64,000 bases of DNA, from assembly GCA_963851265.1 (NCBI GenBank), contig CAWKNZ010000002.1, positions 672,001-736,000 of the forward strand, in the 5' to 3' direction. The first letter of the stretch is position 1, and every line of letters starts with the position of its first letter. Positions 1-63,645 of this stretch are shown here, piece by piece. The notes under the pieces were generated by a model that had not been told where the DNA came from, searched no databases, and saw nothing but the letters and a program-made list of their open reading frames with translations. The stretch is from an uncultured Gemmatimonadales bacterium. Its GTDB lineage: Bacteria; Gemmatimonadota; Gemmatimonadetes; Gemmatimonadales; Gemmatimonadaceae. A program made the translations under genes and the position numbers.

Positions 1-2501
1 TCCGGTACAACAACGACCCCGTGACCGCGCCGAATCTGACGAGCGGCGTGACGACGACCCGCGTCAACCGCTTCCAGGTCGACCCGGAGGAGATCGCGTC
101 GCTCGACATCGTCAAGGGCCCGTCGGCGGCGGCGCTCTACGGCACGGCCGCCGCGAACGGCGTGATCATCATCCAGACGAAACGCGGCATCGCCGGGCGC
201 ACGCGCTGGACGGGAATCGGCGAGATCGGCTCGGTCGTGCAGCCGTCGAGCTTCGAGCCGAACTGGTGGTCGTTCGGGCACAACGTGACCAACGGTGTCG
301 CGGGTACCAGGGTCGTGCACTGCCTCAACAGCCAGCGCGCGCTCGGCCAGTGCACCGTCGACAGCGTCACGTCGTACAACCCGTATACGGCGGCGCCGAC
401 CGACCCGTACGCGAATGGCGGGCGCGGCACGGGCGCCATTCAGGCGTCGGGCGGGAGCAACAACCTCACGTACTTCGTGTCGGGCGAGCGGCAGCAGGAG
501 ACCGGGCCGTACCACATGCCCGACTTCGAACAGCAGCGGCTCTCGACGCTCGGACAGCAGCTGACGAACACGCAGATCCGCCCCAACCAGCTCGCGATCA
601 ACGCGATCCGCGGCAACTTCGGGCTGACCCTGGCGCCCAACGCGACGCTGACCGTGAGCACCGGCTACCAGGGGCGTTCGCTCTACACGCCGTTCTCGGG
701 CGGGTACTTCGCGGGGATGCAGTTCCAGTTCATGACCGCGCCGGGCTACCGGACGCCCACGAACGGAACGCAGCGCGAGTTCGTCGGCGACATCTTCTCG
801 GTCGAGCAGCGCCTGCAGGACGACCGCCTGACGGGGAGCGCCGCGCTCAACTGGACGCCGGTGAGCTGGATCGACGCGCGCGCGACGGTCGGCATCGACG
901 CGACGTCGTCGTACAACTACCGCCTGCAGATTCCGGGGCAGGGCACGCACAACGGGTCGGCCTGGGGTCCCACCGCCTCGCAGGGGTACTCGGGGAAGGA
1001 CGCGCAGCGCGCGAACACGAACGTGTATTCGGTGGACCTCAGCGCGACGGCGACGCGCAGCCTGACGCGCGACCTCCGCTCCCGCACCACCGTCGGCGGG
1101 CGCTGGTACCGCACCGGGTTCTACGACTCGGAGCTCTCGGGCTACGGCCTGCCGCCGGGATCGACGGAGCCTAACGCGGCGGCGCAGCGGCTGTCGTGGG
1201 AGTCGGTGGTCGAGAACGCGCAGTACGGCGTGCTCCTCCAGGAGGACCTCCAGTTCCGCGACCGCCTCTTCCTGAGCCTCGGCATCGGTCAGGACCACAA
1301 CAGCGCGTTCGGCCGGTCCGTCGGGAACACGACGTACCCGCGCGGCGGCATCTCATACGTGATCTCGGACGAGCCGTGGTTCCCGCGCATCGCGGGCCTG
1401 AGTCGGCTGCGGCTGCGCACGGCGGTCGGGAAGTCGGGCGTGCAGCCCGGCACGGTGGCCGCGCTGCAGTACTACCAGTCGCAGACGTATCCGATCTTCG
1501 GCGTCGAGCAGCCGGGACTTCGGTTCCAGGCGCTGGGCAATACGAACCTCAAGCCCGAGGTCACGACGGAGGTCGAGGGGGGCGCTGACATCGGCTTCCT
1601 GCGCGACCGGGTCACGGTCGAAGCGACGTTCTTCAACAAGCTGAGCCGGGACGCGCTGTACGCGCTCCCGCTCGCGCCGTCGCTTGGCGTGGCCGCCGGG
1701 ACGCAGTTCTACAACCTCGGCAAGGTGAAGAACGCCGGGCAGGAGCTCGCGGTCGACGCGCTCGTGCTGCAGTCGGTTCCGCTCACGTGGAACCTCCGGG
1801 TGAACGGCTCGCACATCAAGAACAAGCTCGTCAGCGCGGGCAACGTGGTGCTGCCGACGCCGCAGGGCGCGCGCATCGCGGTCGGATATCCGCTGTTCGG
1901 CCTCTGGGACAAGCCGTACACGTATAGTGACGCGAACAAGGACGGCCTCATCGTGCCGTCGGAGATCACCGCCAGCTCGACCGACGCGTTCCGCGGCTCG
2001 ACGCTGCCGGAATACGAGGCCGGCGTGAACAACGTGTTCGGCTTCTTCAACAACCGGCTGCGCGTGTCGACGCTGTTCGACTACCGCGGGAATTTCTGGA
2101 ACCAGTGGGGCTACCAGTACCAGCGTTGCGGCAGCTCGCTGAACTGCCAGGCGATCAACGACCCGAAGGCACCGGTCGCCGATCAGGCGGCGGCGGTGGC
2201 GTCGACGACGGGCTCGTTGTACAACACGCGGTGGGGCTACTTCGTCCGCAACGACTTCATCCGCCTGCGCGAGCTGTCGTTCTCGTACGAGCTCTCGGAC
2301 CGTCTGACGCGGCGCTACCTGCGCGGCCGCTCGCTCTCGGTCGCGCTGAGCGGGCGCAACCTCGGCGTGCTGTGGACCAAGTACCCGGGGCTCGATCCGG
2401 AGGCGAACTCCTCGGTGGCCAACACGGGCGGCGGCAACAACGACTTCTACGCCGAGCCGGCGCTGCGCTACTGGGTCGCGAAGTTCAACCTGGGCTTCTG
2501 A
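1..2501 (+). CDS. SusC/RagA-family TonB-dependent outer-membrane transporter (5'-truncated by window edge)
   Basis: Plug motif 'DPEEIASLDIVKGPSAAALYGTAAANGVIIIQTKRG', 'GNTNLKPE', C-terminal 'YPGLDPE...KFNLGF'; followed by a SusD-like lipoprotein. Confidence 0.95.
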   Translation, partial: RYNNDPVTAPNLTSGVTTTRVNRFQVDPEEIASLDIVKGPSAAALYGTAAANGVIIIQTKRGIAGRTRWTGIGEIGSVVQPSSFEPNWWSFGHNVTNGVAGTRVVHCLNSQRALGQCTVDSVTSYNPYTAAPTDPYANGGRGTGAIQASGGSNNLTYFVSGERQQETGPYHMPDFEQQRLSTLGQQLTNTQIRPNQLAINAIRGNFGLTLAPNATLTVSTGYQGRSLYTPFSGGYFAGMQFQFMTAPGYRTPTNGTQREFVGDIFSVEQRLQDDRLTGSAALNWTPVSWIDARATVGIDATSSYNYRLQIPGQGTHNGSAWGPTASQGYSGKDAQRANTNVYSVDLSATATRSLTRDLRSRTTVGGRWYRTGFYDSELSGYGLPPGSTEPNAAAQRLSWESVVENAQYGVLLQEDLQFRDRLFLSLGIGQDHNSAFGRSVGNTTYPRGGISYVISDEPWFPRIAGLSRLRLRTAVGKSGVQPGTVAALQYYQSQTYPIFGVEQPGLRFQALGNTNLKPEVTTEVEGGADIGFLRDRVTVEATFFNKLSRDALYALPLAPSLGVAAGTQFYNLGKVKNAGQELAVDALVLQSVPLTWNLRVNGSHIKNKLVSAGNVVLPTPQGARIAVGYPLFGLWDKPYTYSDANKDGLIVPSEITASSTDAFRGSTLPEYEAGVNNVFGFFNNRLRVSTLFDYRGNFWNQWGYQYQRCGSSLNCQAINDPKAPVADQAAAVASTTGSLYNTRWGYFVRNDFIRLRELSFSYELSDRLTRRYLRGRSLSVALSGRNLGVLWTKYPGLDPEANSSVANTGGGNNDFYAEPALRYWVAKFNLGF

Positions 2502-2535
2502 GGCACCCGCCGTGGCTTCCCCCGAGACCTCTCCG

Positions 2536-3909
2536 ATGCCGACCACTTCCCCTCACGCCCGCGGGCTGCGCCTAACGATCGCCCTCGCCTCCCTCGCCGG
2601 CGCGGCCTGCAACCGCGACAAGCTGCTCGAGGTGCAGACGCCCGACATCATCACGACGTCGTCCGCCGGGTCGGTGAGCGGCGCGCAGGCGGTGCGTGCC
2701 GCCGCGGTCGGCAACTTCCTCTGGCTGTACGCCGGCGACAACAACGGCTCGTCCCCCCTCGGGATGAACCTCGCCACGGGCATGTTCGCCGACGAGATCT
2801 TCTCCGCGCGGAGCGGCACCGAGCATTGGGACCAGCGCGCGATCAATTCCACGCTCCTGCCGTCGAGCACGTGGAATCAGGTCGGCAACACGCACACGCA
2901 GCTGATCCGCGCCATCAAGGCGATCAACCAATACCCGCCTGCGGGGACGACGAAGGGCACGCAGTTGGGCGAGTTGTACACGTACCGCGGCTACACGTAC
3001 CTGCTGACGGCCGAGGCGTACTGTAACGGCGTCCCGTTCACGAACGGCGACGACGCCAACCCGACGTACACGGTGCTCTCGAACGCGGACCTGTACACCC
3101 GCGCACTCGCCGTCTTCGACAGCGCGGCGCAGAACCTCGCGACGGACACCACGGCGGCGAACGCCGCGCAGATCGCGTCGCTGAGCCGGACGATCGCCGT
3201 CGGTCGTGGGCGGGTGCTCCTCAACATGGTGCGCGACAGCACCGACGTGGCGGGGTTCCAGGCGGCCGCGGCCGCCGTCACGGCCGTGCCGACGACGTTC
3301 TCGTTCAACCTGACCTACTCGTCGCTCACGGCGAGCATCGTGAACGTGGTCTACGACTGGATGGTCGCGACGCGCAACTTCGGCGCGTCCGACAAGGAGG
3401 GAGGAAACGGGCTCGACTTCCTCAGCTCGAAGGACCCCCGGATCAAGGTCGACCCGACCAAGACCGCGCCGGGGCAGGACGGGAATCCGACGCCCACGCT
3501 CCTCTTCAACAACACGACGAACTTCCCGGTACCGCTCGCGACCGGGACCGAGGCGCGGCTGATCGAGGCCGAAGCGAAGCTCGCGTCGGGCGACGCTGCC
3601 GGGTGGCTGGCGGCGCTCAACACGCTGCGGACGGGGACGACGGGACTCGCGCCGCTCGCCGATCCGGGGACGGCGGCCGCGCGGAACAGCCTCATGTTCC
3701 GCGAGCGCGCCTTCTGGATGTACATGACGTCGCACCGGCTGGGCGATCTGCGCCGCCTCGTGCGCCAGTACGGGCGCAACTCGGAGACGGTCTACCCGAC
3801 GGGCGCGTACTTCAAGGGTGGCGTGTACGGCACGGACGTGAACCTGGTGCCGTCGCAGGCCGAGCAGAACAACCCGAGCTGGAAGGCGTGCACCGATCGT
3901 AAGGCGTGA
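2536..3909 (+). CDS. SusD/RagB-family surface lipoprotein
   Basis: Signal peptide with lipobox 'LAGAA-C'; 'EARLIEAEA' and 'RERAFWMY...HRLGDLRR' SusD-type C-terminal motifs; ATG at 2536 (alternative GTG 2512). Confidence 0.9.
   Translation: MPTTSPHARGLRLTIALASLAGAACNRDKLLEVQTPDIITTSSAGSVSGAQAVRAAAVGNFLWLYAGDNNGSSPLGMNLATGMFADEIFSARSGTEHWDQRAINSTLLPSSTWNQVGNTHTQLIRAIKAINQYPPAGTTKGTQLGELYTYRGYTYLLTAEAYCNGVPFTNGDDANPTYTVLSNADLYTRALAVFDSAAQNLATDTTAANAAQIASLSRTIAVGRGRVLLNMVRDSTDVAGFQAAAAAVTAVPTTFSFNLTYSSLTASIVNVVYDWMVATRNFGASDKEGGNGLDFLSSKDPRIKVDPTKTAPGQDGNPTPTLLFNNTTNFPVPLATGTEARLIEAEAKLASGDAAGWLAALNTLRTGTTGLAPLADPGTAAARNSLMFRERAFWMYMTSHRLGDLRRLVRQYGRNSETVYPTGAYFKGGVYGTDVNLVPSQAEQNNPSWKACTDRKA
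3141..3197 (+). repeat. 57-bp segment of the first susD, duplicated at 9040-9096
   Basis: 51/57 identity by hand alignment with a 27-bp perfect core ggcggcgaacgccgcgcagatcgcgtc. Confidence 0.85.
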
Positions 3910-3992
3910 GTCGTCGGGGGCGGCGGGAGGGGCGCGCGGCCGCTCTCGCCCGCCCGACGTCGCTCGGACAGCGGTGACTGGCATCGAACGAG

Positions 3993-4026
3993 ACGGCGGG
4001 GCGGCCAGTACTGGCCGCCCCGCCGT
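3993..4026. terminator. Perfect 34-bp palindrome, probable bidirectional terminator between convergent susD genes
   Basis: acggcggggcggccagt|actggccgccccgccgt, followed by TTT on the + strand. Confidence 0.75.
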
Positions 4027-4052
4027 TTTCGTCAGCCTGCGACCGCGTTACG

Positions 4053-15597: not shown

Positions 15598-17282
15598 ATG
15601 GCCGGTCCCCCCCGCACGACGCCGCGGTCGCGCAGTCGCCCGCGCAGTCCCTGGCGCAGTCGCCCACGCAGTTCGCGCCGATTCTCCTGACCGACGACCC
15701 AGGCGAGGCGCCCGAGGCGGCGGCGGCCGCGCTCGGGGGGTGGCGCGTGGTGCGGCTCGCGGAACGGGCGCTCGCCGACGCAGTGGCGACGACGCCCGAA
15801 GCCCGCGCGGTCGTGGTGACCTCCGCCAACCCGAACGCGTTGCGCGACGTCGCGGGTGCGGCGCGGCGCGCCGGAGTCGCGGTCGTCGTCGGGTGCGCCG
15901 ACGAGACCGCGCGGCGGCGTGCCGCGGAGGTGCAGGCCGACGACTGGTATCAGTCGCCGGCGTCGGCCGACGAGGTGGCCGCGCGTGTGCGGACGGCCAT
16001 CACGCGTGCTACGCCGGGCGGCGCGGCCGCGTCGCTCGACCGGATCGAGCGCGCGGAGTACGAGCACCTCCTCTACGACCAGCGTACGGGGCTACCCACG
16101 CTGCCCGTGGCCATCGAGCGCTCGCGCGCGGCCATCAAGGAGCGCGGCGAGGTCGTCGTGCTCTACCTCAACTTCGTGCGCTACTCGAAGCTCGAGGAGA
16201 TCTACGGCTGGGAGAAGCTCGACGCCGTGCTCGAGACGACGGCCGAGGCGGTGCGCGAGTTCATCGACGGCAGCGCGCTCTCGGGGTCGCGGGCGCTGGT
16301 GACGTTCATGAACGACGCCGACGTGGTGCTCTTCCACGTGCCCGCCAAGGGCCGCGCGGCGGCGACGGACGCCGACATCACCGAGCTCACCGGGGGGCTC
16401 TCGGCGCGCGTCGCCGCGCGGCTCGAGGCGGAGCACGGCGAGGACGTCGCCGCACTGTTCGACATCTACATCGGCGTCGCGCACGTGTACTACAACGCGA
16501 AAGTGCGGCTCGAGCGGCTGATGTACCGCGGCATCCGCGAGGCGGCCAACGCGGCCAAGAGCGTCGAGGAGCGCGAGCGGGCGCGCAAGGTGGCCGACCT
16601 GCGCACGAGTCTGCGGGACCGGCTCGTCTACGTCGACTACCACCCCATCGTCGAGGCGTCGACCCAGCGGGTGTTCGGGTACGAAGCGCTCGCGCGCGGG
16701 CGCATGCGGTCGCTGCGCAGCCCGGAGGTCATGTTCGAGGTCGCGGCGGAGGCCGACCTGCTGTGGGAGCTGAGCCGCCTCTGCCGCGAGCGCGCCGTGG
16801 AGGGGATGGGCGCGCGCATGGCCGACGGCGAACTCCTGTTCCTGAACGTCGACCCGCAGGACTTCGCCGACCCCGAATTCTCCGAGCAGGCGTTAGGCGT
16901 GGACGACCCGCGGCGCGTGGTCATCGAGATCACCGAGCGCACGGCCATCAAGGACTACCCCAAGTTCCGCGGGCGCCTCAAGGCGTTCCGCGACGCGGGG
17001 TTCCGGTTCGCGGTGGACGACGCGGGGTCGGGCTACGCGGGCCTCGGATCGATCGCGAACCTCGAGCCCGACTTCATCAAGCTCGACATGTCGCTGATCA
17101 ACTGCATCGACGCGAACTTCATCAAGCAGAACCTCGTGGAGACGATGGTGAAGTTCGCGAACGACCAGGGCGCGATGGTGATCGCGGAAGGGGTGGAGCG
17201 GAAGGAGGAGTTCGACGCGGTGCGGGCGCTGGGCGTGCATCTGGTGCAGGGTTTCTTCCTGCACCGCCCGGAAGGCCACTGA
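15598..17282 (+). CDS. EAL-domain c-di-GMP phosphodiesterase with degenerate REC-like and GGDEF-like domains; apparent frameshift in a C7 run near the start
   Basis: 'YEALAR', 'FLNVD', 'IEITE', 'VDDAGSGY', 'IKLD', 'AEGVE', 'QGF'. The open frame extends upstream of 15747 (…PILLTDD…) to the C7 run at 15607-15613; ATG 15598 joins it if one C is added. Confidence 0.85.
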
Positions 17283-17356: not shown

Positions 17357-18745
17357 CTAACGCTCGTCGCGCCCTCCGTCCAACAGGTCCCGCACCAGCG
17401 CCCACGTGCGCCGGTCCGCGCCGAGGCCGCCCTCGACGACCCCGCGTGCCGCGGACCCCGCGTGCGCGCGCAGCGTGTCACTCGTCCGCCACCGCCGCAG
17501 CAGCTCGGCGAGCGTCCGGGCGCTCGGTGCCGCTTCCGCGCCACCGGCGGCGATCAGCAGGCCGGCATCGCGGCTGTTCGCGTGCTGCGGCCCGAACGCG
17601 ACCGGCACGCCGAACGCGGCAGGCTCCAGCACCGAGTGCAGGCCCGCGCTGTGGAAACCGCCGCCGACGAACGCCGCGTCGGCCGCGGCATACAACTCCG
17701 CAAGCACGCCGACGCGGTCGACGAGCACGACGTCGGCGTCGCGGGCCGCGTCGGGCCGGTCGAGCATGGCCGACCAGCGGACGACGCGCAGACGGTTGGA
17801 CGCGGCCCACTGCTCGAGCGGGGCGAGGTGCGGCGGCGTGGGCTCGTGCGGGGCGAGCACGAGGCGTGCGCTCGCGTCCTGGCGCCGGAGCATGATCCAC
17901 GCCTCGCCGAGCGGGCCTTCGTCCGCGGGCCACGTGGAGCCCGCGACGAGCGTGAACCGCGGGTCTCGCGCGCCGGCCTCGCCGCCCAGCCGGGATCGGG
18001 CGAGCGCGGCGAGCGCGGCCGCCGCGTCGGCGGGCAGCGCGAGGGCGCGCGCGCGTTCCCACGCCTGGTCGTACCGGGTGTCGCCGGTGACCTCGACCCG
18101 GTCGCGCCTAACGCCGAGCGCGACCAACCGGTCGGCGTCGGCCGCGTCGATGGCGCCGACGCGGTCGAGGGCGCGGTAGGCGTCGCGGAGCACGAGGCCG
18201 GCGAGGCGCCCGCGCCGCCGCGCGCCGGGCGCCAGCGTGGCGCTCACGAGACCCAGCCGCACCCCGCGGGCGGCGGCGCGGGCGACGAGCGTCGGCCACA
18301 CGTCGAGCTTGCTGAACACGAGTGCCGTCGGGCGGAGCGCGTCGAGTAGCGCGGCCGCGTCGCCGCCCGTGTCGAACGGCAGGACGTCGGCGTGGTCGGC
18401 CAGGCCGGCGGTCACCAGACCGCGCGCGAAGGCGCGCGCGCTCGGCGAGTAGTATGTGTAGGCGCGCTGCACGTCGGGCGCCTCGCGTCGCGCCCACTCG
18501 AGCACCGGGCGCGCCTGCAGTCCTTCGCCGACGCTGGGCGCGTGGACCCAGAGGAGCGGGCGGTCGGCGTCGCGGTGCGCGGCGCCCCACGCGCGGTAGC
18601 GGGCGCGCACGCCGCGCCGCGCGCGCAGACTCTGCTGGAGCTTGCCGCCGCCGTCCGGGGTGAGCGCCGCGGCGAGGCGCGCCGCGGCGCCTAACGCCGC
18701 GTAGGCGGCCCGCAGCGGCGCGGCGGCGCGCGCGCCCGCGCTCAG
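17357..18745 (-). CDS. waaA: 3-deoxy-D-manno-octulosonic acid (Kdo) transferase
   Basis: 'LLWVHAPSVGE', 'LPFD', 'VTGDTRYD', 'VAGSTW', 'LAPHEP', 'AFVGGGF...HSVLEPA'. Start uncertain; a CTG at 18745 overlaps the dsbA stop. Confidence 0.88.
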   Translation of the reverse strand: MSAGARAAAPLRAAYAALGAAARLAAALTPDGGGKLQQSLRARRGVRARYRAWGAAHRDADRPLLWVHAPSVGEGLQARPVLEWARREAPDVQRAYTYYSPSARAFARGLVTAGLADHADVLPFDTGGDAAALLDALRPTALVFSKLDVWPTLVARAAARGVRLGLVSATLAPGARRRGRLAGLVLRDAYRALDRVGAIDAADADRLVALGVRRDRVEVTGDTRYDQAWERARALALPADAAAALAALARSRLGGEAGARDPRFTLVAGSTWPADEGPLGEAWIMLRRQDASARLVLAPHEPTPPHLAPLEQWAASNRLRVVRWSAMLDRPDAARDADVVLVDRVGVLAELYAAADAAFVGGGFHSAGLHSVLEPAAFGVPVAFGPQHANSRDAGLLIAAGGAEAAPSARTLAELLRRWRTSDTLRAHAGSAARGVVEGGLGADRRTWALVRDLLDGGRDER

Positions 18746-19494: not shown

Positions 19495-19589
19495 CACAGA
19501 TGAAGGGCAGACGTGGAGGGCGCTCGCCGAGCCGCGGCGTGACGCGGTGACACCCGAGGTGCGCCGAGCCCGTATAAGATACACGCCCG

Positions 19590-28325: not shown

Positions 28326-28384
28326 GGGAGGATTCGGGCTGGGGCCCGGCACCGGGCCCGGTGGTGGGGCGCGACCGCCGGCCG

Positions 28385-29951
28385 TTAGGCGGGCGCGGGT
28401 GAGACGGCATCGCGCGGAAACAGCGCGGCCCCCTTCTGCACCTGCCACCCCGACGGATCGAGCGCGTCGAGCCCGGCGAAGCGCTGATCCGCCACGTCGC
28501 CCGGGCCGCCGAGCTGCGCCCACAGTTCGGCGGCTTTACCAGGCATCGCGGGCCACACGCACACCGCCGCAACCGCGAGCCGGCGTACCGCCGCGTGCAG
28601 CACCGCGTCCAACTCGGCCCCGCGCGCGGGATCCTTGGCCAACGTCCACGGCTGCCGCTCCTGCACCTCGGCGTTCGCCCGCGCGACCACGCGCCACAGC
28701 GCGGCGAGCGCCTCGTTGGGCACGTACCCGCGCGTGCCGTCCATGGCCGCGTGGTACGCCGCGAGATCGCCCGCGTCCGCGCCGCGCGTCGAGCCGAGCA
28801 CGACCGACGGCACGGCCGGCACCACGCCGCCGCGGTACTTCTCGACCATCGCGACGGTGCGGCTCGCGAGATTGCCGAACGCGTTGGCCAGGTCGGCGGT
28901 GTAGCGGTCGGCGAAGCGTTCCCACGAGAAGTTGCCGTCACCGTCGAACGGCACCTCGCGCAGCAGGAAGTAGCGGAAGGCGTCGGGCCCGTAGCGCGCG
29001 ACGGCCTCGTCGAGGTCGAGGGTGACGCCCGCACTCTTGCTGAACCGCTCGCCGCCCAACGACACGAATCCGTGCGCCCACACGCGCTCGGGGAGTGGCA
29101 GCCCCGCGGCCTCGAGCATCGCCGGCCAGATCACGCAGTGGAAGCGCGTGATGTCCTTGCCGATCACGTGCAGCTGCGCGGGCCAGCGCCCCTCGGGCGC
29201 CTCCCACGCGCCCTCCGGGAAGCCGGTCGACGTCAGGTAGTTGGGCAGCGCGTCGAACCACACGTAGGTCGCCTGCGTCTCGCCGTCGCTCGTGGGGCGC
29301 GGGAAGGGCACGCCCCAGGTGAGGCGCGCGCGACTCGCCGACACGTCCTCCAGGCCCTGCGCGAGGAGGCCGAGCAGTTCGTTGCGCCGGCTCTCGGGTT
29401 GGCAGAACTCGGGGTGGTCGCGGAGCAGGCGTTCGAGGAACGGCTGGTAGCGCGACAGGCGGAAGAACCAGTTCCGCTCGGCGGTCCACTCCAGGGTGCG
29501 CGTCGGGTGTAGCTCACAGCGCCCGTCGACGATCTCCTCGGCGGTCTTGAACGCTTCGCAGCCTACGCAGTACCAGCCTTCGTACGTGCGCTCGTAGAAG
29601 TCGTCGGGGTTGCGCGCGAAGATGCGTTCGACCAGGGCGCGAACGCCGCGCTGGTGCTGCGGCGCGGTGGTCCGCACGAACTGGTCGTACCGTACGTCGA
29701 GCGACGCCCAGGTGCGCTCGAACGTCGCCGCGACCTCGTCGACGAGCTGCTGCGCGGGAGATTCCGCGCGCCTCGGCCGCCTGCTGCACCTTCTGGCCGT
29801 GCTCATCCATCCCCATCGAGAAGTGCACGGCGCGCCCCGCGAGGCGGTGATAGCGGGCGATCGCGTCGGCGCCGACCTTCTCGAGGGCGTGGCCGAGGTG
29901 CGGGTCGCCGTTGGCGTAGTCGATCGCGGTCGTGATGTAGAACGGGCGCAT
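28385..29951 (-). CDS. metG: Methionine--tRNA ligase (short form), apparent +1 frameshift near 29757
   Basis: '[18 protein letters not shown]', 'GMDEHGQKV' in one frame; '[10 protein letters not shown]', '[10 protein letters not shown]', 'IGKDITRFH', 'RFSKS' in the next. Start ATG 29951 or GTG 29960. Confidence 0.92.
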
Positions 29952-35757: not shown

Positions 35758-36912
35758 ATGGCAATAACTTACGTTCGTTCCTGGCGGCGGGGCCTGCGCC
35801 GGACGCTCGGCGGCCTGGCGGCCCTGGTCGCGCTCGGCCTGGTGGGTACGACCGATGGACGGTGGCTGGTGCGGGCGGGGTGGGAGGAAGGCCGGATCCT
35901 GGAGCGCCGCCGCCCGATCGCCGAGGTCGCGCGCGAGGCCGCCGCGTCGCGGCCCTCACCGAGCGACGCGCGGACGCGAGGGAAGCTGCAGCTCGTGCTC
36001 GCCGCGCGCGCGTTCGCGGCCGACTCGCTCGGGCTCAACGCGGGGCACAGCTTCGAGTACTACACCGACATCGGGCGCGACACCCTCCTGCTGCTGCTCA
36101 CCGGTGCGCGCCGCGATACGCTCGCGCCGGTGACGTGGTGGTTCCCGGTGGTCGGGAGTGTGCCGTACAAGGGCTTCTTCGACGCCGCCGCGGGTCGGCG
36201 TGCGCGCGACGACCTGCGCGCGCACGGTTACGACGCCTACCTCCGGCCGTCCTCCGCGTTCAGCACCCTCGGCTGGTTCGCCGACCCGCTACTCAACACG
36301 GCGATCGTCGGCGACTCGGTGGACCTCGCCAACACGGTGATCCACGAGCTGACGCACAACACGTTCTACGCGCCGAGCCAGGCGGCGTTCAACGAGAGCT
36401 TCGCGAGCTTCGTCGGCGCGCGCGGCGCGGAGCGGTTCTTCGCCGCGCGGGGCGATACGGCGTCGGTGGCCGCGGCCGGGCGTCGGTGGGCCGACGAGCG
36501 CACGCTCGGCGAGTTCTGGGCGGCGTTAGGCAGGTCGGTCGACTCGGCGTACGCGGCGCACCCCGGACGCGACTCGGCCGCGCGCGCGGCGCGGCTCGCG
36601 GCGCGCGCGGACGTGACCGTCGCCGCGCGCCGTGCCCTCGCCGACAGCGTGGTCCCGCGGCTCGTCGATCCGCGCCGGACGCGCGGCGGGCCGGCCGCGC
36701 TCGCGCGGTGGGCGGCGCGGACGCCGCTCGACAACGCCGCCCTGCTCGCACGCCGCACGTACGCGCGCGAGCTGGCGCTGTTCGACGCCGTGTACGCGCG
36801 CGAGGGGAGCGACCTCCGGCGGAGCATCGCACGGCTCATCGCGCTCGCCAAGTCCGACCCGAAAGACCCGTACGGGGCGGTGCGGCGGTGGGTGGGCAGA
36901 GTCCCGTCGTGA
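35758..36912 (+). CDS. Putative zinc-dependent aminopeptidase (DUF2265-like)
   Basis: 'WWFPVVGSVPYKGFF', 'AFSTLGWFADP', 'IHELTH', 'FNESFASF'. Confidence 0.85.
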   Translation: MAITYVRSWRRGLRRTLGGLAALVALGLVGTTDGRWLVRAGWEEGRILERRRPIAEVAREAAASRPSPSDARTRGKLQLVLAARAFAADSLGLNAGHSFEYYTDIGRDTLLLLLTGARRDTLAPVTWWFPVVGSVPYKGFFDAAAGRRARDDLRAHGYDAYLRPSSAFSTLGWFADPLLNTAIVGDSVDLANTVIHELTHNTFYAPSQAAFNESFASFVGARGAERFFAARGDTASVAAAGRRWADERTLGEFWAALGRSVDSAYAAHPGRDSAARAARLAARADVTVAARRALADSVVPRLVDPRRTRGGPAALARWAARTPLDNAALLARRTYARELALFDAVYAREGSDLRRSIARLIALAKSDPKDPYGAVRRWVGRVPS

Positions 36913-39291: not shown

Positions 39292-40059
39292 TCAACGACC
39301 AGAACTGGCCGGTTGAAGCCGGCCGAGCAGTCGCGCCCGGAGATCGGCCGACTCCACCTTCGCCGGTGTGAGGCCGAACGCGCGTGCGAGGGACTCGGTC
39401 ACTGCCCCGCCCACGCGGTCGACGCTGGCGTCCGCCGCGAGCGCGGCCGGTGCCTCGCGGGCCACGGCAGTCATCTCGACACCGTCGATCCCGCACGGCA
39501 CGATGAGGTCGAAGTAGGCGAGTGGCTCGGGTGTCACGTTCAGCGCGAATCCATGCGACGTCACCCACTCGCGCGCGTGGACGCCGATCGACGCGAGCTT
39601 CCGCGGCAGGCCGGACGTGCCTGACGCGCCACCCGACGCCTCGGGGTCGGTCCACACCCCCGTGAACGGCGGGTTGCGCCCGGCCGCCACCCCAAACTCG
39701 GCGACCGCGTCGATGAGCGCCTGTTCGACTTGCCGGAGGTACCAGTGCAGGTCGCGGCGGTGACGCTTGAGGTCGATGATCGGGTACCCGACGAGCTGTC
39801 CGGGGCCGTGGAACGTGCTGCCGCCGCCGCGCTCGACCTCGTGCAGCTCAACGCCGCGCGCGGCCAGGAGGGCGGGCGAGGCGAGCAGACGGTTGTCGGC
39901 CGCTCGCCGGCCTAACGTGAGGACCGGCGGGTGCTCGACGAGGAGGAGCAGGTCCTCGTCGAGGTCGCCCGCGACGCGCGCGGCCGCGGCGGCTCGCATG
40001 AGGGCGAGCGCGTCCGCGTATGGCGTGAGGCCGAGGGACGTGACGAGGAGGTCGGCCAT
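39292..40059 (-). CDS. lipB: Lipoyl(octanoyl) transferase
   Basis: 'LVEHPPVLTLGR', 'RGGGSTFHGPGQLVGYP', 'KLASIG', 'HGFALNV', 'IVPCGI'. Confidence 0.96.
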   Translation of the reverse strand: MADLLVTSLGLTPYADALALMRAAAAARVAGDLDEDLLLLVEHPPVLTLGRRAADNRLLASPALLAARGVELHEVERGGGSTFHGPGQLVGYPIIDLKRHRRDLHWYLRQVEQALIDAVAEFGVAAGRNPPFTGVWTDPEASGGASGTSGLPRKLASIGVHAREWVTSHGFALNVTPEPLAYFDLIVPCGIDGVEMTAVAREAPAALAADASVDRVGGAVTESLARAFGLTPAKVESADLRARLLGRLQPASSGR

Positions 40060-46380: not shown

Positions 46381-47613
46381 ATGCAGCTCGTGTCGAGGGC
46401 GCTTCGGTGCGCGCGACGAACCACGCCCGCGATCGCGGCCGGCGTCGCGAGCACGGCCGGGCGGATGCTGGTCGCCGCGGCGCTCGCAATGTGCGGACTC
46501 GGCAGCGCGTCCGCCCGCGCACAGGCACCGAGTACCGTCCCGGACGCGCGTCACACGGTGATCGGGAGCGTCCGCGCGGCCGACGAAAGCCGGCTCGTTG
46601 GCGCGCACGTGCAGCTCAACCGCCCGGGCCGAACCGGCGCGCCTGCGATCGTCGTGATCACCGAGGCGGACGGCGTGTTCCGCTTCGAGCACGTTCCGGA
46701 AGGCTCGGCCGCGCTCGTCGTCCGGCGCCTCGGTTTTCGCCCCGAAACTCTCAGCGTCGAGGTCCCGCAGCTCGAAGGCGGTCCGGTGGTCGTGGCGCTC
46801 GAACGCGTGGCCCAGCAGATCGCTCCGGTGACGGTCCGCGGGACCCGGCATGCGGCGCGCCTCGCGTCGGCGTTCGAACGCCGGCGTGCGAGCGGGCTCG
46901 GGCGGTACATCACGCGCGAGGAGATCGAGCGCCGGAACCCCCAGCGCACGACCGATCTCCTCCGCGACCTGGCCGGCGTGACCGTGACCGGGTCAGGACC
47001 GCGCTTCCGGGGCGCGGGAAGCGCGTCGTGCAGCCCGGTCTATTTTCTCGACGGGATGCCGGTCGGCGCCGGGACGCTCGACCTCGACGCGATCAGCCCG
47101 AAGTCGATCGAGGCGATCGAGGTCTACAGCGGCGCCGCGACGGTGCCGGCGGCGCTGCGTACCGCGATGTCGCCCGGGGGGTGCGGCGCGGTCGTCCTCT
47201 GGAGCCGGCAGGGGAGCACACCCCGCGATCTGTTAGGCGCGGTCGGTGCGGTCGACTCGCTGGAGGACATCGTCTCGCGTGGCCTCGCGTACACGGCGGA
47301 TCAGGTCGAACTCGCGGCGGCTCCGCTTCCCGGGCTCGGCCCAGTTCCGGCGTACCCCGACTCGCTGCTCGCGGCGGGCGCGCGGGGGCGCGTGGTGGCC
47401 GAGTTCATCGTCGACGGGCAGGGACACGTCGACGCCGAAACGGTCGGCATCGTATCGAGTTCACACCCCCTATTCGCCGAGGCCGTGCGTGCGGCCGTGA
47501 TCGACGCCCGGTTCTCGCCCGCGTATCGGGAGGGGCACGTCGTGCGGCAGGTAGTGCACCTGCCGGTCGACTTCGACCCGCGCGGTCCGACCGCGGCACC
47601 CGCGCCTCGCTGA
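46381..47613 (+). CDS. Carboxypeptidase-regulatory-like + TonB-receptor plug + TonB C-terminal domain fusion (no beta-barrel)
   Basis: 'TEADGVFRF...VRRLGFRP'; plug 'YITREEIE...TDLLRDLAGV...YFLDG...SIEAIEVY'; TonB-C 'PAYPDSL...GRVVAEFIVDGQGHV...RFSPA...G..VRQVVHLPVDF'. Confidence 0.75.
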   Translation: MQLVSRALRCARRTTPAIAAGVASTAGRMLVAAALAMCGLGSASARAQAPSTVPDARHTVIGSVRAADESRLVGAHVQLNRPGRTGAPAIVVITEADGVFRFEHVPEGSAALVVRRLGFRPETLSVEVPQLEGGPVVVALERVAQQIAPVTVRGTRHAARLASAFERRRASGLGRYITREEIERRNPQRTTDLLRDLAGVTVTGSGPRFRGAGSASCSPVYFLDGMPVGAGTLDLDAISPKSIEAIEVYSGAATVPAALRTAMSPGGCGAVVLWSRQGSTPRDLLGAVGAVDSLEDIVSRGLAYTADQVELAAAPLPGLGPVPAYPDSLLAAGARGRVVAEFIVDGQGHVDAETVGIVSSSHPLFAEAVRAAVIDARFSPAYREGHVVRQVVHLPVDFDPRGPTAAPAPR

Positions 47614-47684: not shown

Positions 47685-47715
47685 CCACCCGCACGTCGTT
47701 AGGCGACCGCGCCGC

Positions 47716-50225: not shown

Positions 50226-51317
50226 TCAGCTCGTCGTGTCGACGAGCACGTCTTCGTAGAGCGTCTCGGGCGCGGGCTCGGGGCTCGCCTCGGCGAAGTC
50301 CCACGCGTCCTGCACCACCGCCTTCACCTCGTCGTCCATCGCCTGCACGCCCGCGTCGTCGATCTGCCCGCGTTCCTGCATCGCCGCGCGGAGCAGCGTG
50401 ATGGGGTCGCGCTGGAGGTACTCGTCGAGTTCCTGCTTGCTGCGGTACGTGCCGCTCACCGCGTCGCTCATGGAGTGGCCCATGAAGCGGTACGTGCGCA
50501 CCTCCAGCAGCGTGGGCGTCTGCTCGGCCCGCGCGCGGTCGATCGCCTCCTGCATCGCCTTCCGGACCGCGAACACGTCCTGCCCGTCGCACTGGCCGCG
50601 GGGCATGTTGTACGCCGCACCCCGCTCGTAGATGTCGTGGATCGCGGAGGCGCGCTCGAGCGCGGTGCCCATGCCGTAGCGGTTGTTCTCGATCACGTAG
50701 ACGGCCGGCAGCTTCCAGAGCCCCGCCATGTTGAGCGCCTCGTGGAACGCGCCGGTGTTCACGACGCTCTCGCCCATGAAGCAGACGCACACCTGGTCGC
50801 CGCCGCGGTACTTGATGGCGAACGCGACCCCGGTGCCTAACGGCACGTGCGCGCCGACGATGCCGTGCCCGCCGAGAAATCCGGTCTGGCGGTCGAAGAG
50901 GTGCATCGAGCCGCCCTTGCCGCGGACCACGCCGTCGGCGCGGCCGAACAGCTCGGCCATGATCGCGCGCGGCGAGATGCCGCGCGCGAGCGCCTGGCCG
51001 TGGTCGCGGTAGGTGGTGATGATGTAGTCGTCGGGGCGGAGCAGGCTCATCGCGCCGGTGCTCACCGCCTCCTGCCCGATGTAGAGGTGGCAGAACCCGC
51101 CGATGCGGCCAATCGCGTACGCCTCCGCCGTGCGCTCCTCGAATCGGCGCTGGAGGAGCATCGAGCGGAGCATCGCACGGTTGAGCTCCGCGTCGCCGGC
51201 CGGGTCGGCGGCCGCGGGGTCAGCAGGAGCGGGGTCGGCGGGCGTCGTCGCCGCCGGCGCGGGCGGCGCGTCCATCACGGCGGTCGCGCCGTTCGAGTCA
51301 GGCTTCTTCTTGGCCAT
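50226..51317 (-). CDS. pdhA: Pyruvate dehydrogenase E1 alpha subunit
   Basis: 'IGGFCHLYIGQEA', 'GKGGSMH', 'ENNRYGMGT', 'TYRFMGHSMSD'. Confidence 0.97.
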   Translation of the reverse strand: MAKKKPDSNGATAVMDAPPAPAATTPADPAPADPAAADPAGDAELNRAMLRSMLLQRRFEERTAEAYAIGRIGGFCHLYIGQEAVSTGAMSLLRPDDYIITTYRDHGQALARGISPRAIMAELFGRADGVVRGKGGSMHLFDRQTGFLGGHGIVGAHVPLGTGVAFAIKYRGGDQVCVCFMGESVVNTGAFHEALNMAGLWKLPAVYVIENNRYGMGTALERASAIHDIYERGAAYNMPRGQCDGQDVFAVRKAMQEAIDRARAEQTPTLLEVRTYRFMGHSMSDAVSGTYRSKQELDEYLQRDPITLLRAAMQERGQIDDAGVQAMDDEVKAVVQDAWDFAEASPEPAPETLYEDVLVDTTS

Positions 51318-52706: not shown

Positions 52707-52746
52707 GCCCGGCGCGGCGGGCGACCGCGACGGGCCGCCCGATGCG

Positions 52747-53610
52747 TTAGGCAGCCTTCTCGCCGGCGCGCCGGTTGTTCAGCTGCATGGTGAGCGAGCC
52801 GAACGACAGCGACGACTGCACCTTCAGGATGACGCGCTGGTCGTCGTCGGAGATCCACACCTCGGCGCGCCCGCCCTCGGAGAAGATGCCCTTCGTCTTG
52901 ATCGTCGGCTGCACGACGACCGCGTCGAACGTACCGGCGGGCACGCGCACGCGTTCACGGCGCAGGACCCGGATCCGCACCGGGTTGCGGTCGGGCTTGT
53001 AGTACCGGTTGAACTCGTACACGTCCCCCGTGTGCAGCGGCAGCGTGCGGACCATGTACAAGAACGAGCCGTCGTCGAGCGGGTCGGCGCTCGAGCGCTC
53101 CTCGGGCTTCGAGCCGTCCTGATACGTCTGGCGCTCGGGGAATATCTCGTAACGCTTGTTGCGCGACTTGCTCCCCTCGAGCTGCGTCTGGTAGAAGCGC
53201 AGCGACGAGAGCGTCGTGGTGTCGATCCAGCTCTCGTATGTGTCGTTGACGTGGTAGAAGAACGTGCCGCCGGTGATGTGGAAGACGGCGTGGTACGCGG
53301 GGCGTCCGCGCACGTCGACGACCTCGGGCACCTCGAGCGTGGCGTTGCCCGCGTGCAGGACGCCGAACTTGACGTCGTAGGCGAGCCGCTCGCCCACGCC
53401 CCAGGGCACCGCCGCGCCCGCGACGCGGGTCCGCGGCTCTGCGGCGGGCGCCGGCTGCTGCGACGCGCGGGCGAGCACCGCGGCGGGCGCCGCGCCGAAC
53501 GCGACGGCCGCCGCGAGGCCGGCCGCAACGCGTCGGCGCCGACCGGTGCGCCCCCGCGCGTGCGGCGGGCGCGACCGGCACAGACGGCGTGAAGTGTGGT
53601 GGTTGATCAT
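52747..53610 (-). CDS. DUF3108-like exported protein
   Basis: 'GERLAYDVKFG..HAG.A', 'VRVPAGTFDA', 'VWISDD..RVILK'; ATG overlaps the upstream stop (ATGA). Confidence 0.8.
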   Translation of the reverse strand: MINHHTSRRLCRSRPPHARGRTGRRRRVAAGLAAAVAFGAAPAAVLARASQQPAPAAEPRTRVAGAAVPWGVGERLAYDVKFGVLHAGNATLEVPEVVDVRGRPAYHAVFHITGGTFFYHVNDTYESWIDTTTLSSLRFYQTQLEGSKSRNKRYEIFPERQTYQDGSKPEERSSADPLDDGSFLYMVRTLPLHTGDVYEFNRYYKPDRNPVRIRVLRRERVRVPAGTFDAVVVQPTIKTKGIFSEGGRAEVWISDDDQRVILKVQSSLSFGSLTMQLNNRRAGEKAA

Positions 53611-56006: not shown

Positions 56007-57902
56007 GTGACCGTTCCTGGCGCGACGCGGCATGCGTCGCGGGCGGGCGCGGGCGGGGTGGCGCGCGCGGGCGCCCGCCTCGCGGGTGCGGGCGCGCTCG
56101 CGCTCGGCGTGCGGGCCGCGGCCCAGCCGCCGAGCAGCGTCCCGCTCCCGGCCGGACCTCCGGGGCCGGCTGTGCGTGCAACACCCCCCGCTCCGCCAGA
56201 CACCGGGGCGCGTCGGTTCGAGGGACGGCCGCTCGTCGCGTGCCGCGGGCAGACGGTGCACGAGATCGTCGTCGACAATCACGCGCCGCTCAGCAATCAG
56301 CGCGTGCCGCGGCGGCTCAGAAAGCTCGAGCGGCGCGTCACCGCGCTGCACTCCACGACGCGCGAGAGCGTCGTCCGCCGCTTCCTCCTGTTGCGCGAAG
56401 GCGACCCGTGCGACGAACTCCGACGTTCGGAGTCCGAGCGCGTGCTGCGCGCCCAGCCGTTCCTGGTCGATGCGCGGGTACGTCCGTACGCGGACGGCGC
56501 CGGCGGGGTCACGCTACTGGTCACCACGCGCGACGAATTCTCGGTCCTGCTCGCCGTCGCGGCATTGAGCGGGGGTGGCGCGCCACCCGTCAGCCGCTTG
56601 CGCGTCGGCGAGGCCAATCTGATGGGCGAAGGCGTGTACGCGTCGGCCGAGTGGTACTGGGGCGGCGTCGGGTACCGCGACGGATACCTCGCCCGCATCA
56701 TGGACTACCAGTTCGCCGGCAGGCCGTACCAGCTCTCGGTCATCGGTGAGCGGCGCGACGTCGGGGGCCAGTGGGCGGTCGACTTGAGCCACCCGTTCTA
56801 CACCGACCTGCAACGCGTCGGCTGGCGCACCTCGGCCGGCGACGCGCACGAGTACCAGCAGCTCATACGACCCGGCACCGCGAACGCACTCTTCTATCGC
56901 CGGCGCTACGCGAACGTGGGCGGGATCGTGCGGCTCGGCGTACCCGGACGCCTGAGCCTGTTCGGCGCGTCGGCGTCGTTCGAGCGCGCGTCGACGGAGA
57001 ACCGGATCCGCGTGTTGAGCGATACGGGGATCGTGCCTGACGTGGGGTATGGCGCCCCGCTGGGCGGGCCGCCGCCGTCGCTGCGATTTCCGGGGCAGAA
57101 CGTGGCGCGTCTCAACGCCCTGTGGGGCGTGCGCGACGTGACGTTCGCGCGCGTGTCGGGGTTCGACGCGCTCACCGGCACGCAGGACGTGCGGCGCGGA
57201 TTCCAGGCGAGCGTTCTGTTCGGGCGCAGCGTCCCGGTGTTCCGGTCTCACGACGACGACTACTTCGTGTCGAGCGACGCGTACGTCGGCGCCGGGGGGC
57301 CGCGTGCCTTCGCGGCGGCGGAGGCCCGCGGCGAGGCGCGGCGTGACAACGCGCTCGGGCGGTGGGACGGGGTGATCGTCGGCGGCCGGGCGGCGGCGTA
57401 CCTCGTGCCGGACGCGCGCTTCCGCTTCGTGTCGAGCGTCGAGTACGGGACGACGCAGCGGCCGCGGATCCCGGTGCAGCTCTCGTTAGGCGACCGCTAC
57501 GGGGGCGTGCGCGGGTACGACGGCAGCAGCGTGTCGGGCGCGACGCGGCTCGTGTCGCGCAACGAGGCGCGCGTGGTGTTCGGGCCGAAGTTCGGGCTGG
57601 GCGAGTTCGGCGCCGACGTGTTCGCCGACGCGGGCAAGCTGTGGGCCGGCGACGCGCCGTACGGCGTGACGACGCCCGTGCGCTCGTCGGTCGGCGTCGG
57701 CCTGCTCGGCGCGTTTCCCCCGGGGTCCCGCCGGCTGTGGCGCCTCAACGTCGCCCGGCCGCTGTCGCGAGAGCCCGGCACCTCGAAGTTCCGGATCATC
57801 CTCGACAACCGCGATCTCACACGGCAGTTCTGGCGCGAACCTGGCGACGTTAGCAACGGGCGGGAGCGATCTGCGCCCGCCAGCCTCTACAACTGGCCCT
57901 GA
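56007..57902 (+). CDS. Omp85/BamA-TamA-like outer-membrane protein (single POTRA-like domain + barrel)
   Basis: 'TRESVVRRFLLLREGD...ESERVLR', 'EANLMGEG', 'GVRGY', 'FADAG..W'. Confidence 0.75.
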   Translation: MTVPGATRHASRAGAGGVARAGARLAGAGALALGVRAAAQPPSSVPLPAGPPGPAVRATPPAPPDTGARRFEGRPLVACRGQTVHEIVVDNHAPLSNQRVPRRLRKLERRVTALHSTTRESVVRRFLLLREGDPCDELRRSESERVLRAQPFLVDARVRPYADGAGGVTLLVTTRDEFSVLLAVAALSGGGAPPVSRLRVGEANLMGEGVYASAEWYWGGVGYRDGYLARIMDYQFAGRPYQLSVIGERRDVGGQWAVDLSHPFYTDLQRVGWRTSAGDAHEYQQLIRPGTANALFYRRRYANVGGIVRLGVPGRLSLFGASASFERASTENRIRVLSDTGIVPDVGYGAPLGGPPPSLRFPGQNVARLNALWGVRDVTFARVSGFDALTGTQDVRRGFQASVLFGRSVPVFRSHDDDYFVSSDAYVGAGGPRAFAAAEARGEARRDNALGRWDGVIVGGRAAAYLVPDARFRFVSSVEYGTTQRPRIPVQLSLGDRYGGVRGYDGSSVSGATRLVSRNEARVVFGPKFGLGEFGADVFADAGKLWAGDAPYGVTTPVRSSVGVGLLGAFPPGSRRLWRLNVARPLSREPGTSKFRIILDNRDLTRQFWREPGDVSNGRERSAPASLYNWP

Positions 57903-58911: not shown

Positions 58912-58940
58912 CGGCCGCCTAACTGGCTCGCGGCGGGCGC

Positions 58941-60515
<1,575 letters not shown>

Positions 60516-60567
60516 GCGGTACGATACGCCGAGGTCGCCCCGGGCCGCACCCCCGCTCGGCGTGGTG

Positions 60568-62651: not shown

Positions 62652-62706
62652 GCGGTTCAGTTTAGGTCGGCGGGAAGGGAGACGTGGCCCCCGTCGCGAG
62701 GCGACG

Positions 62707-63645
62707 TCACGCCGCTGCGCCCCGCGCACGGTCGCCGGCCCAGTCGCCGAGCACGCTCGCCGAGAGGACGCAGAGGACGACGCACGCAGTGGGCACTGCA
62801 ACGGTCCACGGGGCGTCGGCGAGGTACGCCGCGCCGTCCTGGACCATGCTCCCCCAGCTCGCGTCGGGCGGCCTGACGCCGAGCCCGAGGAACGAGAGGC
62901 CGGCTTCGAGCGCGAGCAGTTCGCCGAAGAGGAGGGTGCCCGCGACGGCGACCGTGCCGACGACGTGCGGCGGCAGGTGTCGCAGGAGCACACGCCCGGG
63001 AGACGCGCCCAGCGCGCGCGCGGCCTCGACGAACTCCGCGCGTCGCACGGCGGCGACGCGCGCGCGCACGAGGCGGCTCGTCCCGGGCCACGCGGTGAGG
63101 CCGAGCACGAGTGCGAGCGTGGGGGACGAGATGTGCGCCCACAGGGCGACGACCGCGAGCAGGAGCAGCACGCGCGGCACGCCGAGGACGGCGTCGACGC
63201 CGCGCATCAGGACCCGCTCCGTGCGCCCGCCGAGCGCCCCGGCCGCCCCGCCGACCGCGGTGCCTAACGCGGTCGCGACGGTCGCCGCGAGGGCGGCGAC
63301 GCCGAGCGACGTGCGCCCGGCGTAGAGCGTGCGGCTGAGCACGTCGCGCGAGAACGGGTCGGTGCCGAGGAGGTGCGCCCCCGACGGTGGCCGGTTTTGC
63401 AGCGCGACGAGGTCGAACTGGCGGGCGGGATCGTAGGGCGCGAGGTGTGGCGCGAGGAGCGCGACGGCGCCGAAGGCGGCGAGCGTCACGCCGGCGAGTC
63501 GAACGGACCACGGCAGCCGGGCGACGGCAGAGACGACGCGGCCGCGAAGCGCCGGGAGCGCACTCACCGTGGCCACGCGCATCGTCGCGATCGCCGGGTA
63601 CGCGGGTGTGCCCACGGCATGCGGAATGACGCTCGCATCGCTCAC
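62707..63645 (-). CDS. Peptide ABC transporter permease (OppC/DppC-like)
   Basis: '[15 protein letters not shown]', '[12 protein letters not shown]', '[10 protein letters not shown]'; GTG overlaps the upstream stop. Confidence 0.9.

Follow-up and report, generated by a model that had tools for sequence, protein, structure and literature searches.

Few words dispersed over whole bacterial genomes have a known reader: DNA uptake sequences (DUS), uptake signal sequences (USS), Chi, FtsK-orienting polar sequences (KOPS), matS and the highly iterated palindrome HIP1. KOPS, matS and SlmA/Noc sites are dispersed protein-binding words placed within genes, and the core of an integron attC site is formed by GTTRRRY and RYYYAAC boxes. 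We found no such word from the abundant soil phylum Gemmatimonadota, and no published description of the word reported here or of any over-represented oligomer in this phylum, most subscription papers lying outside the search. Here we analyze the non-palindromic octamer CGTTAGGC and its heptamer core GTTAGGC (together, the word), which stood out in a window of 64,000 nucleotides (positions 672001-736000 of contig C2) from an uncultured Gemmatimonadales bacterium, whose genome is referred to as G000.

The word resembles DUS and USS in its hundreds to thousands of exact, non-palindromic copies, which occupy both strands and several reading frames, are conserved, are scarce in foreign-looking genes and occur in a host with competence genes. 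It differs from them in being shorter (7-8 bp rather than 9-12), in forming few terminator pairs, in being common to separate lineages and dense in phages, and in two properties that are absent from a DUS sample: copies exclude one another under 200-300 bp, and each is surrounded by a zone of raised GC content, termed the halo below. Chi is likewise a short, self-type word tied to recombination, and its over-representation in phages that rely on host recombination, described in the accessible text of PMC3784561, provides a precedent for a recruited host signal. The present word, however, is non-polar, has a two-sided halo and an orientation-independent exclusion, is enriched ~100-fold rather than 2-3-fold, and is mostly found in genomes where AddAB was not found. 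Like KOPS, matS and SlmA/Noc sites, it is dispersed and written in genes, but it is neither polar nor confined to or excluded from the terminus. HIP1 is also a hyper-abundant octamer under selection whose function is unsettled, reported to aid transformation (bioRxiv 2024.09.10.611283, accessible part); unlike HIP1, the word is non-palindromic and has no matching methyltransferase or N6-methyladenine. Finally, its letters are identical to those of the attC core, including the C or T before it, but dispersed copies have no hairpin partner, do not flank cassettes, lie inside core genes and show no link to intI.

The word is selected as DNA

The G000 assembly (4.60 Mb, 12 contigs, 3,831 genes by self-trained gene calling) contains 1,396 CGTTAGGC octamers and 1,762 GTTAGGC heptamers, present on all 12 contigs. 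Its nearest plasmid matches indicate a Gemmatimonadaceae-type bacterium. Against Markov models of orders 2 and 3, the word ranks top, with 24-28-fold enrichment. In coding DNA, 1,035 copies were found where 10.6 are expected, and the octamer is enriched 98-fold under a null that keeps codon use, protein and next residue; one-off variants at positions 2-8 reach only 0.5-5-fold under the same null. The invariant core is the heptamer, preceded by C (79%) or T (14%), and no longer consensus surrounds it.

Every usable frame is enriched (9-211-fold). The frame nnG-TTA-GGC dominates, holding 996 of the 1,294 fully coding copies, followed by CCT-AAC (200), CTA-ACn (74) and GTT-AGG (24); the remaining heptamers overlap gene ends (198) or are intergenic (270). 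The 996 copies in the main frame account for most of the 1,288 TTA codons in the genome. Per amino-acid opportunity, the octamer is realized at similar rates on the coding strand (782/4,733) and the template strand (166/789). Its use depends on gene composition: none of 16 opportunities is realized in the most A/T-rich genes, and the rate climbs to 0.31 in the GC-purest genes. Orthologous sites are kept where amino acids permit (20/35 in G001, 20/30 in G004 and 5/5 in G002), whereas other rare codons are kept at 7-14% in the same orthologs, at a 4-fold-degenerate site identity of ~0.61; the difference has p ~1e-8 once the first residue is matched. The word is therefore under selection or drive that acts on DNA and not on protein. 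An initial annotation of the window had reached this view from frame-independence, overlooking the dominance of one frame, and the genome-wide count, codon-aware null, TTA-context and ortholog comparisons it had proposed all bear it out.

Copies exclude one another and are surrounded by a GC halo

Copies exclude one another below ~150-300 bp in either orientation. Across inter-copy distances examined up to 3 kb, coding sense-frame pairs within 150 bp number 1 against 38 expected, a value as low as which was reached in 0 of 200 simulations. A Leu-Gly dipeptide is realized as the word in 1/294 cases at 12-50 bp from another copy, 2/362 at 50-100 bp and 5/391 at 100-150 bp; the rate then reaches ~0.05 (200-300 bp) and 0.10-0.14 (300-2,500 bp), whichever way the two copies are oriented. 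Opposite-orientation pairs under 200 bp are similarly scarce (2 against 17 expected), and inverted close pairs of the kind that DUS and USS form at terminators are rare: of 1,750 gaps between copies, 10 are under 25 bp, where 16.8 are expected. The best-fitting exclusion has a length of ~120 bp and a depth of 5.4 log units, equivalent to the 211-fold enrichment; because this depth equals the total enrichment, a nearby second site is without advantage. The exclusion is repeated in G012 (39 pairs against 102 under 200 bp) and in pooled GTDB loci (35 against 88), as well as in G251 and G307 together (0 against 5.8) and in the plasmids of G. kalamazoonensis KBS708 (0 against 5.6 under 300 bp), and its length is alike across word densities.

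The A/T fraction at 4-fold-degenerate sites rises with distance from a copy, from 0.032 (<60 bp) to 0.040 (100-150 bp), 0.047 (250-300 bp), 0.057 (500-700 bp), 0.070 (1.5-2.5 kb) and 0.080 (>5 kb). Within genes the odds ratio is 0.66; among 905 genes, A/T is lower near the word in 618 and higher in 269 (p=2e-36). This halo is equal on both sides and both strands and flat around matched, unrealized control sites. With gene, codon-family, next-base and position effects included, its coefficient is -0.72 +/- 0.03, alike on C2 and the other contigs, while shifted placebos give +0.08 and +0.01; the best-fit length is ~300 bp. All 30 A/T-ending codons are reduced near the word (0.45-0.91), and so is intergenic A/T (0.234 against 0.278). 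Where an aligned pair has the word only in the other genome, that genome shows the deeper halo (0.035 against 0.064; G000, 0.062 against 0.075). The halo was replicated in pooled GTDB loci (z -3.9 and -3.1) and in G251 plus G307 (z -3.1 and -2.1). Divergence between G and C is flat with distance from the word; this and the flat control sites disfavor mosaic foreign patches as the cause, although mildly foreign patches are possible.

The word is dense in scattered lineages and in two phage groups

Dense copies are confined to scattered Gemmatimonadales lineages. A density above 3 octamers per 100 kb is reached by 19 of 60 relatives (maximum 125), and in a phylum-wide draw the same threshold is exceeded by 17 of 198 genomes of the order and by 0 of 102 outside it; G011, G100, G138 and G214 were counted only as sparse rows. 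In an RpoB phylogeny of 51 genomes (FastTree with midpoint rooting and without a formal test), dense genomes occupy at least five places, several with sparse sisters. Contrasts exist within single genera, as between G251 (3,896 copies) or G307 (4,141) and G303 (66), and between G048 (345) and G056 (8). The densest genome, G012, relaxes the last base of the word, and no replacement dialect word was found in 10 sparse genomes sampled at 10-40 kb each. A GTDB scan returned 41 loci, 36 of them from Gemmatimonadota (35 dense); the other five are chance pairs or local tandem repeats. Since the scan used one spacing and GC-rich flanks, other taxa may still carry the word. Related letters also occur as local repeats: L020:1955-2065, on a Gemmatimonadaceae contig, is a 9 bp tandem run containing the word; L044:3300-3450 and 4640-4690, on a Pirellulales contig, are telomere-like 7 bp tandem runs (GTTAGGC/GTTAGGG); and G047, a genome without the word, over-represents a short REP-like repeat containing CCTAGCCCC (L090-L091).

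Two phage groups are tiled with the word at ~2-2.5 copies per kb. A first two-word scan gave 40 viral loci, and two further scans gave 168 loci that were examined. L249 and L230 are related tailed-phage contigs, 90.5% identical, with endolysin and virion genes; they hold 18 and 15 heptamers, respectively, in 7-8 kb, and L264 holds 9 in 4.6 kb. By contrast, only 22 occur in 852 kb of 78 more distant relatives. The second group, G499/L642, with 35 heptamers in 17 kb, is the sole further dispersed case among the 168 loci, other high-count viral loci being mostly tandem repeats. In L249, 27 GTTAGG hexamers fall into four frame/strand classes with a smallest gap of 95 bp (p=5e-5), and 26 of these 27 sites are kept in L230 at ~28% 4-fold-site divergence. 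L412/L642 was also listed among the word-tiled contigs with L230, L249 and L264. A further viral contig, L344 (42% GC), has 14 same-strand copies 112-840 bp apart.

Copies in the window

The 15 exact copies (6 on the plus and 9 on the minus strand) lie precisely where the initial annotation had placed them, together with its two additional GTTAGGC cores. Its estimate of about two copies expected from base composition agrees with 100 shuffled windows (mean 1.85, maximum 8; 15 reached in 0 of 100), and its remark that the word makes up over half of the roughly 30 TTAG/CTAA tetramers corresponds to 17 of 30 within GTTAGGC. The copies are as follows.

1169..1176, minus strand: CGTTAGGC, read CCT-AAC (Pro-Asn) in a TonB-dependent receptor gene on the plus strand
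2570..2577, minus strand: CGTTAGGC, CTA-ACG, close to the 5' end of gene 2536-3909 (start uncertain)
16891..16898, plus strand: CGTTAGGC, GCG-TTA-GGC, EAL-domain gene
18106..18113, minus strand: CGTTAGGC, GTT-AGG (Val-Arg), waaA
18689..18696, minus strand: CGTTAGGC, GCG-TTA-GGC in the waaA frame, upstream of the called start, within open reading frame 17357-20128
28383..28390, plus strand: CGTTAGGC, overlapping the TAA stop of metG (minus strand)
34568..34575, minus strand: CGTTAGGC, GCG-TTA-GGC, dnaE
36524..36531, plus strand: CGTTAGGC, GCG-TTA-GGC, putative aminopeptidase gene
39910..39917, minus strand: CGTTAGGC, ACG-TTA-GGC, lipB
47232..47238, plus strand: GTTAGGC core with T at -1, CTG-TTA-GGC, Plug/TonB_C fusion gene
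47697..47704, plus strand: CGTTAGGC, intergenic
50835..50842, minus strand: CGTTAGGC, CCG-TTA-GGC, pdhA (E1 dehydrogenase)
52745..52752, plus strand: CGTTAGGC, overlapping the TAA stop of a DUF3108 gene
57484..57491, plus strand: CGTTAGGC, TCG-TTA-GGC, gene 56256-57902 (no Pfam hit)
58917..58923, minus strand: GTTAGGC core with A at -1, intergenic
59838..59845, minus strand: CGTTAGGC, ACG-TTA-GGC, POT-family transporter gene
63262..63269, minus strand: CGTTAGGC, GCG-TTA-GGC, ABC permease (oppC-like) gene

The annotated frames hold for the EAL, dnaE, aminopeptidase, lipB, TonB-fusion, pdhA, 56256-57902, POT and oppC-like genes, and the copies described as lying in other frames, in the two stop codons and between genes are as described. 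Two details change. The gene 56256-57902 had been labeled omp85, a label for which no Pfam hit was obtained at 1e-5, and waaA, listed as TTA-GGC, has two copies, of which only the one upstream of the called start is in that frame. This waaA is the tail of a 923-codon open frame (17357-20128) whose real start lies upstream of 18610. The fusion gene at 46465-47613 joins carboxypeptidase-regulatory, Plug and TonB_C domains without a barrel.

Replication polarity and methylation

The dif site of G000 is located at C2:1,368,968; xerD lies 22 kb from it, and two 16S genes flank a strand-biased terminus region. Copies within 460 kb point to dif in a ratio of 192 to 93, a bias that genes share; the accessible text of PMC11237797 describes a 600 kb terminus region with gene-orientation bias in this phylum. 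The raw bias is explained by gene orientation in the terminus region: the word is realized at 477 of 5,344 opportunities on the leading and 371 of 3,906 on the lagging strand (p=0.36), and neither the two main frames (p=0.36 and 0.35) nor the intergenic copies (120 against 104) differ between replication strands. Contig polarity for this comparison was set from dif and from the skew of GGGNAGGG, a separate word that is polar in G000, and 4 of the 12 contigs were left out because their polarity is unclear. With equal rates per opportunity on both replication strands, Chi and KOPS are rejected. The initial annotation was right to doubt a polarized role, although the 6:9 split on which it relied is too weak a test. 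A KOPS-like orientation toward dif independent of gene direction was not found, nor was the leading-strand bias or one-sided effect of Chi, the halo being equal 5' and 3'. A clear pair encoding the Chi reader, RecBCD/AddAB, is present in 2 of 20 dense genomes, with a fragment in a third.

The initial annotation had also considered a methyltransferase-linked word, which the data contradict. The two megaplasmids of KBS708 carry 778 and 701 octamers, and the single-molecule real-time (SMRT) methylome of this strain comprises only RGATCY, ATGCAC and CCAGN7TCA (PMC3974934). A C5 methyltransferase was looked for in 4 dense genomes and found in none of them. 5-Methylcytosine is poorly seen by the SMRT chemistry used for KBS708. 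As a non-palindromic word, it does not correspond to a HIP1-type palindrome that contains a methyltransferase site methylated in vivo, and a HIP1 sample of modest power (206 kb, 122 in-gene copies) displayed neither exclusion (16 pairs under 200 bp against 16.4) nor a within-gene halo. The small GIY-YIG nuclease and hairpin repeat of Ssn/NTS systems were also not found: four dense genomes have only long GIY-YIG frames, and there is no hairpin.

Relation to integron attC sites

The identity of the word with the attC core, including the preceding C or T and the GTT crossover triplet, was missing from the analogs listed in the initial annotation. In the sparse genomes that we opened, the copies that cluster form the attC ends of cassette arrays, one of which adjoins an intI. 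Of 151 strand-counted hairpin ends, 120 are GTTAGGC, and the preceding base is C (85) or T (61), also the two commonest -1 variants of dispersed copies. Dispersed copies have an inverse partner box, sought 55-150 bp upstream, no more often than controls (106/1,759 against 85/1,393); hairpin and cassette context is real only for a few copies in the C6 and C10 arrays of G000. IntI scores above the cut-off in 39 of 61 genomes irrespective of word density, and only pieces of it occur in the densest genome, G012. With no partner box and an integrase that does not track density, the letter match remains unexplained; we give a causal link between the word and attC about an even chance.

The G000 arrays (C10:188000-215025 and C6:1-6230) are rich in toxin-antitoxin-like genes and insertion sequence elements, and intI is interrupted by an element that carries a gene for a serine-recombinase-like protein. 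In three further genomes (G039:C95, G059:C128 and G038:C8), integron arrays or intI share a contig with comEC, 4-57 kb apart.

Search for a reader

No tested protein family tracks word density. This applies to IntI, ComEC, prepilins, ComEA, C5 methyltransferase, GIY-YIG proteins and HU copy number, to NucS (3/61), MutS (5/5), a PilW-like protein (53/61), UDG (40/40) and the IntI N-terminal domain (5/5), and to Ku (16/20 dense, 12/20 sparse). Only AddAB shows a trend, toward loss: a clear pair of this type occurs in 2/20 dense against 9/20 sparse genomes, at a nominal p=0.03 among kin that are not independent. G303 has such a pair, and it was not found in G251 or G307. An exception among dense genomes is G000 itself (C3:244574-251614), where addA is intact and addB lies in two frames, reflecting decay or long-read error; its genus mates G001 and G004 show no addA/addB pair.

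One region of G000 is free of the word. Over 45 kb (C1:182876-227962) covering gidA, parA, parB and mnmE, 0 of 65 opportunities are realized (p=8e-6), and dnaA also lies inside a 15 kb gap. A general word-free zone at parAB was rejected, being absent in G012, G031 and G004 and partial in G001 (3 copies in 35 kb). In G000, dnaA (C1 11433-12461) and parB (196643-197530) are set apart; the distance is 128-185 kb in this genus and ~20 kb in G008, G012 and G031. No canonical parS was found near parB in G000 or G001.

Weighing the explanations

The word behaves like a self or recombination signal, and comparisons with DUS, Chi, KOPS, HIP1 and attC as known classes either fail or do not decide its membership. 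It is extremely improbable that it is a Chi or KOPS site, a HIP1-like methyltransferase site or a TTA-codon translation signal: the raw bias toward dif and the single dominant frame are what such readings would offer, but the bias tracks gene orientation at equal replication-strand rates, the halo is two-sided, AddAB is rare in dense genomes, the KBS708 methylome lists other motifs only, no C5 methyltransferase was found in four dense genomes, and template-strand, stop-codon and intergenic copies are enriched along with TTA codons. That copies are by-products of an integron integrase, as secondary sites or attC relics, is very unlikely. The shared hairpin-end letters, with the same preceding bases, and the array and split intI of G000 speak for it; the missing partner boxes, the in-frame position of dispersed copies in core genes, their avoidance of the 85-120 bp spacing of attC and the presence of IntI irrespective of density speak against it. 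IntI as a present-day writer is thus largely refuted, and a shared ancestral reader is possible. We also consider it improbable that the word nucleates a nucleoid-type or topology protein that wraps ~100-200 bp and shields it from deamination or oxidation, such that the halo would reflect lowered GC-to-AT mutation and not recombination. A local drop in this mutation would give the same halo, and the reading draws on the hard minimum spacing of ~95 bp in saturated phages, on an exclusion length that is alike across densities, on divergence between G and C that stays flat while A/T drops and on the parAB gap, which would fit occlusion by ParB. The gap, however, is no general feature (in G012, copies lie at -380 and +568 relative to parB, next to a canonical parS), HU copy number does not follow density, no 10-11 bp pattern is evident by eye in the flank profile, and divergence between L249 and L230 is not lower near words.

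An uptake tag, one of the possibilities in the initial annotation, would be read outside the cell by a pilin or ComEA on environmental fragments of 100-300 bp and spread by molecular drive; tuning to attC may have adapted it to the import of gene cassettes, and transformation supplies cassettes to chromosomal integrons according to the accessible text of PMC12614218 and PMC8191803. The competence genes whose presence the initial annotation proposed to check were found: comEC is present in 59 of 61 genomes, competence genes occur in sparse genomes too, and G000 has a full set (comEA, pilB/T/C, pilM/N/O, three minor-pilin sets, dprA and comM). Strong over-representation on both strands, the lack of replication polarity and the dialect-like relaxed base of G012 suit a tag, as does the absence from the most A/T-rich genes, a feature of DUS in the accessible part of PMC2397512. 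Uptake does not increase when a second USS lies within 100 bp (PMC7811141, as far as accessible), and exclusion and a halo would also be expected of a tag that acts on very short fragments. We nevertheless regard this explanation as rather unlikely. A DUS sample of 29 non-redundant loci out of 80 (554 kb, 162 in-gene copies) shows neither a deficit of pairs under 300 bp (20 against 19.3) nor a halo (1.00, 1.03 and 0.98), at modest power and at a density at which the G012 halo is weak too. DUS spacing tracks tracts of 1-1.7 kb, the terminator pairs typical of DUS and USS are rare here, and a partly accessible source places 17% of USS within 30 bp of another. A receptor outside the cell could hardly produce phage tiling unless these phages persist as prophages over long periods; a word common to distant lineages makes a poor species tag; and pilins and ComEA follow no pattern in the same-genus contrasts. 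An uptake tag thus appears to fit the phages and the DUS comparator less well than a loading site.

A local factor inside the cell is the simplest explanation for action in either orientation, redundant neighbors, a shift toward G/C and phage saturation. We therefore favor, at somewhat under an even chance, the reading that the word is an unmodified, orientation-independent loading site for a putative host factor whose action in repair or recombination spans 100-300 bp. A host DNA-binding factor would load at (C)GTTAGGC and reach ~100-300 bp to either side, where it would most likely start or favor short-patch homologous repair or recombination, or license the patch as self. The site would spread and be kept as a consequence, a second site inside the patch would add nothing and fall to background, and A/T alleles close to a site would be purged faster. 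Phages, presumably infecting Gemmatimonadales, would tile themselves, each site spanning a larger share of their genomes. The accessible text of PMC11185547 reports that recombination rate and GC correlate in most species and that, in many bacteria, recombination raises GC through conversion or better selection.

Several observations weigh against this loading-site reading. The reader search returned no candidate, and the full competence gene set of G000 suits a different explanation. The halo is in the same direction but weak within genes of G001, G004 and G012 (0.97-0.99 in G012, z up to -1.9), and was not seen in G002, in G031 (few sites) or between L249 and L230. Its length of ~300 bp differs from the 120-200 bp of the exclusion. 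Dense genomes are no GC-richer than sparse sisters (4-fold-site A/T 0.188 against 0.174, and 0.156 against 0.085), and no genome-wide GC gain was detected in dense lineages (rpoB rho 0.23, p=0.11). Site sharing with the distant G012 is not significant after first-residue matching (7/11 against 24/68, p=0.10). The word-tiled phages are linked to hosts only by distant hits, in 2 of 251 genomes of the family; their enrichment of roughly 20-35-fold is similar to that of G012, so that drive in a prophage state could explain the tiling too. What stands of the initial interpretation is a genome-wide, DNA-selected signal without a Chi or KOPS role; the methyltransferase link falls, and an uptake sequence is not the best fit.

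Implications

We tentatively suggest that the word represents a novel kind of chromosomal signal: unmodified, and either taken over from the attC core or held in common with it, it would load a factor for a 100-300 bp patch of repair, recombination or immunity, would be mimicked by phages at saturation, and would arise repeatedly in lineages mostly without AddAB. If this is true, the fine-scale GC halo would be a bacterial counterpart of recombination hotspots defined by a motif, except that here the motif is gained and not eroded. The word also offers a sub-kilobase natural experiment on whether recombination raises bacterial GC by conversion or by selection, and may connect the attC sites of integrons with a factor of the host. 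The word is dense in an existing type strain, and the search for its reader is narrowed by pairs of congeners of which one has the word and the other lacks it. In a phylum with few cultured members, the word could mark the hosts of Gemmatimonadales phages.

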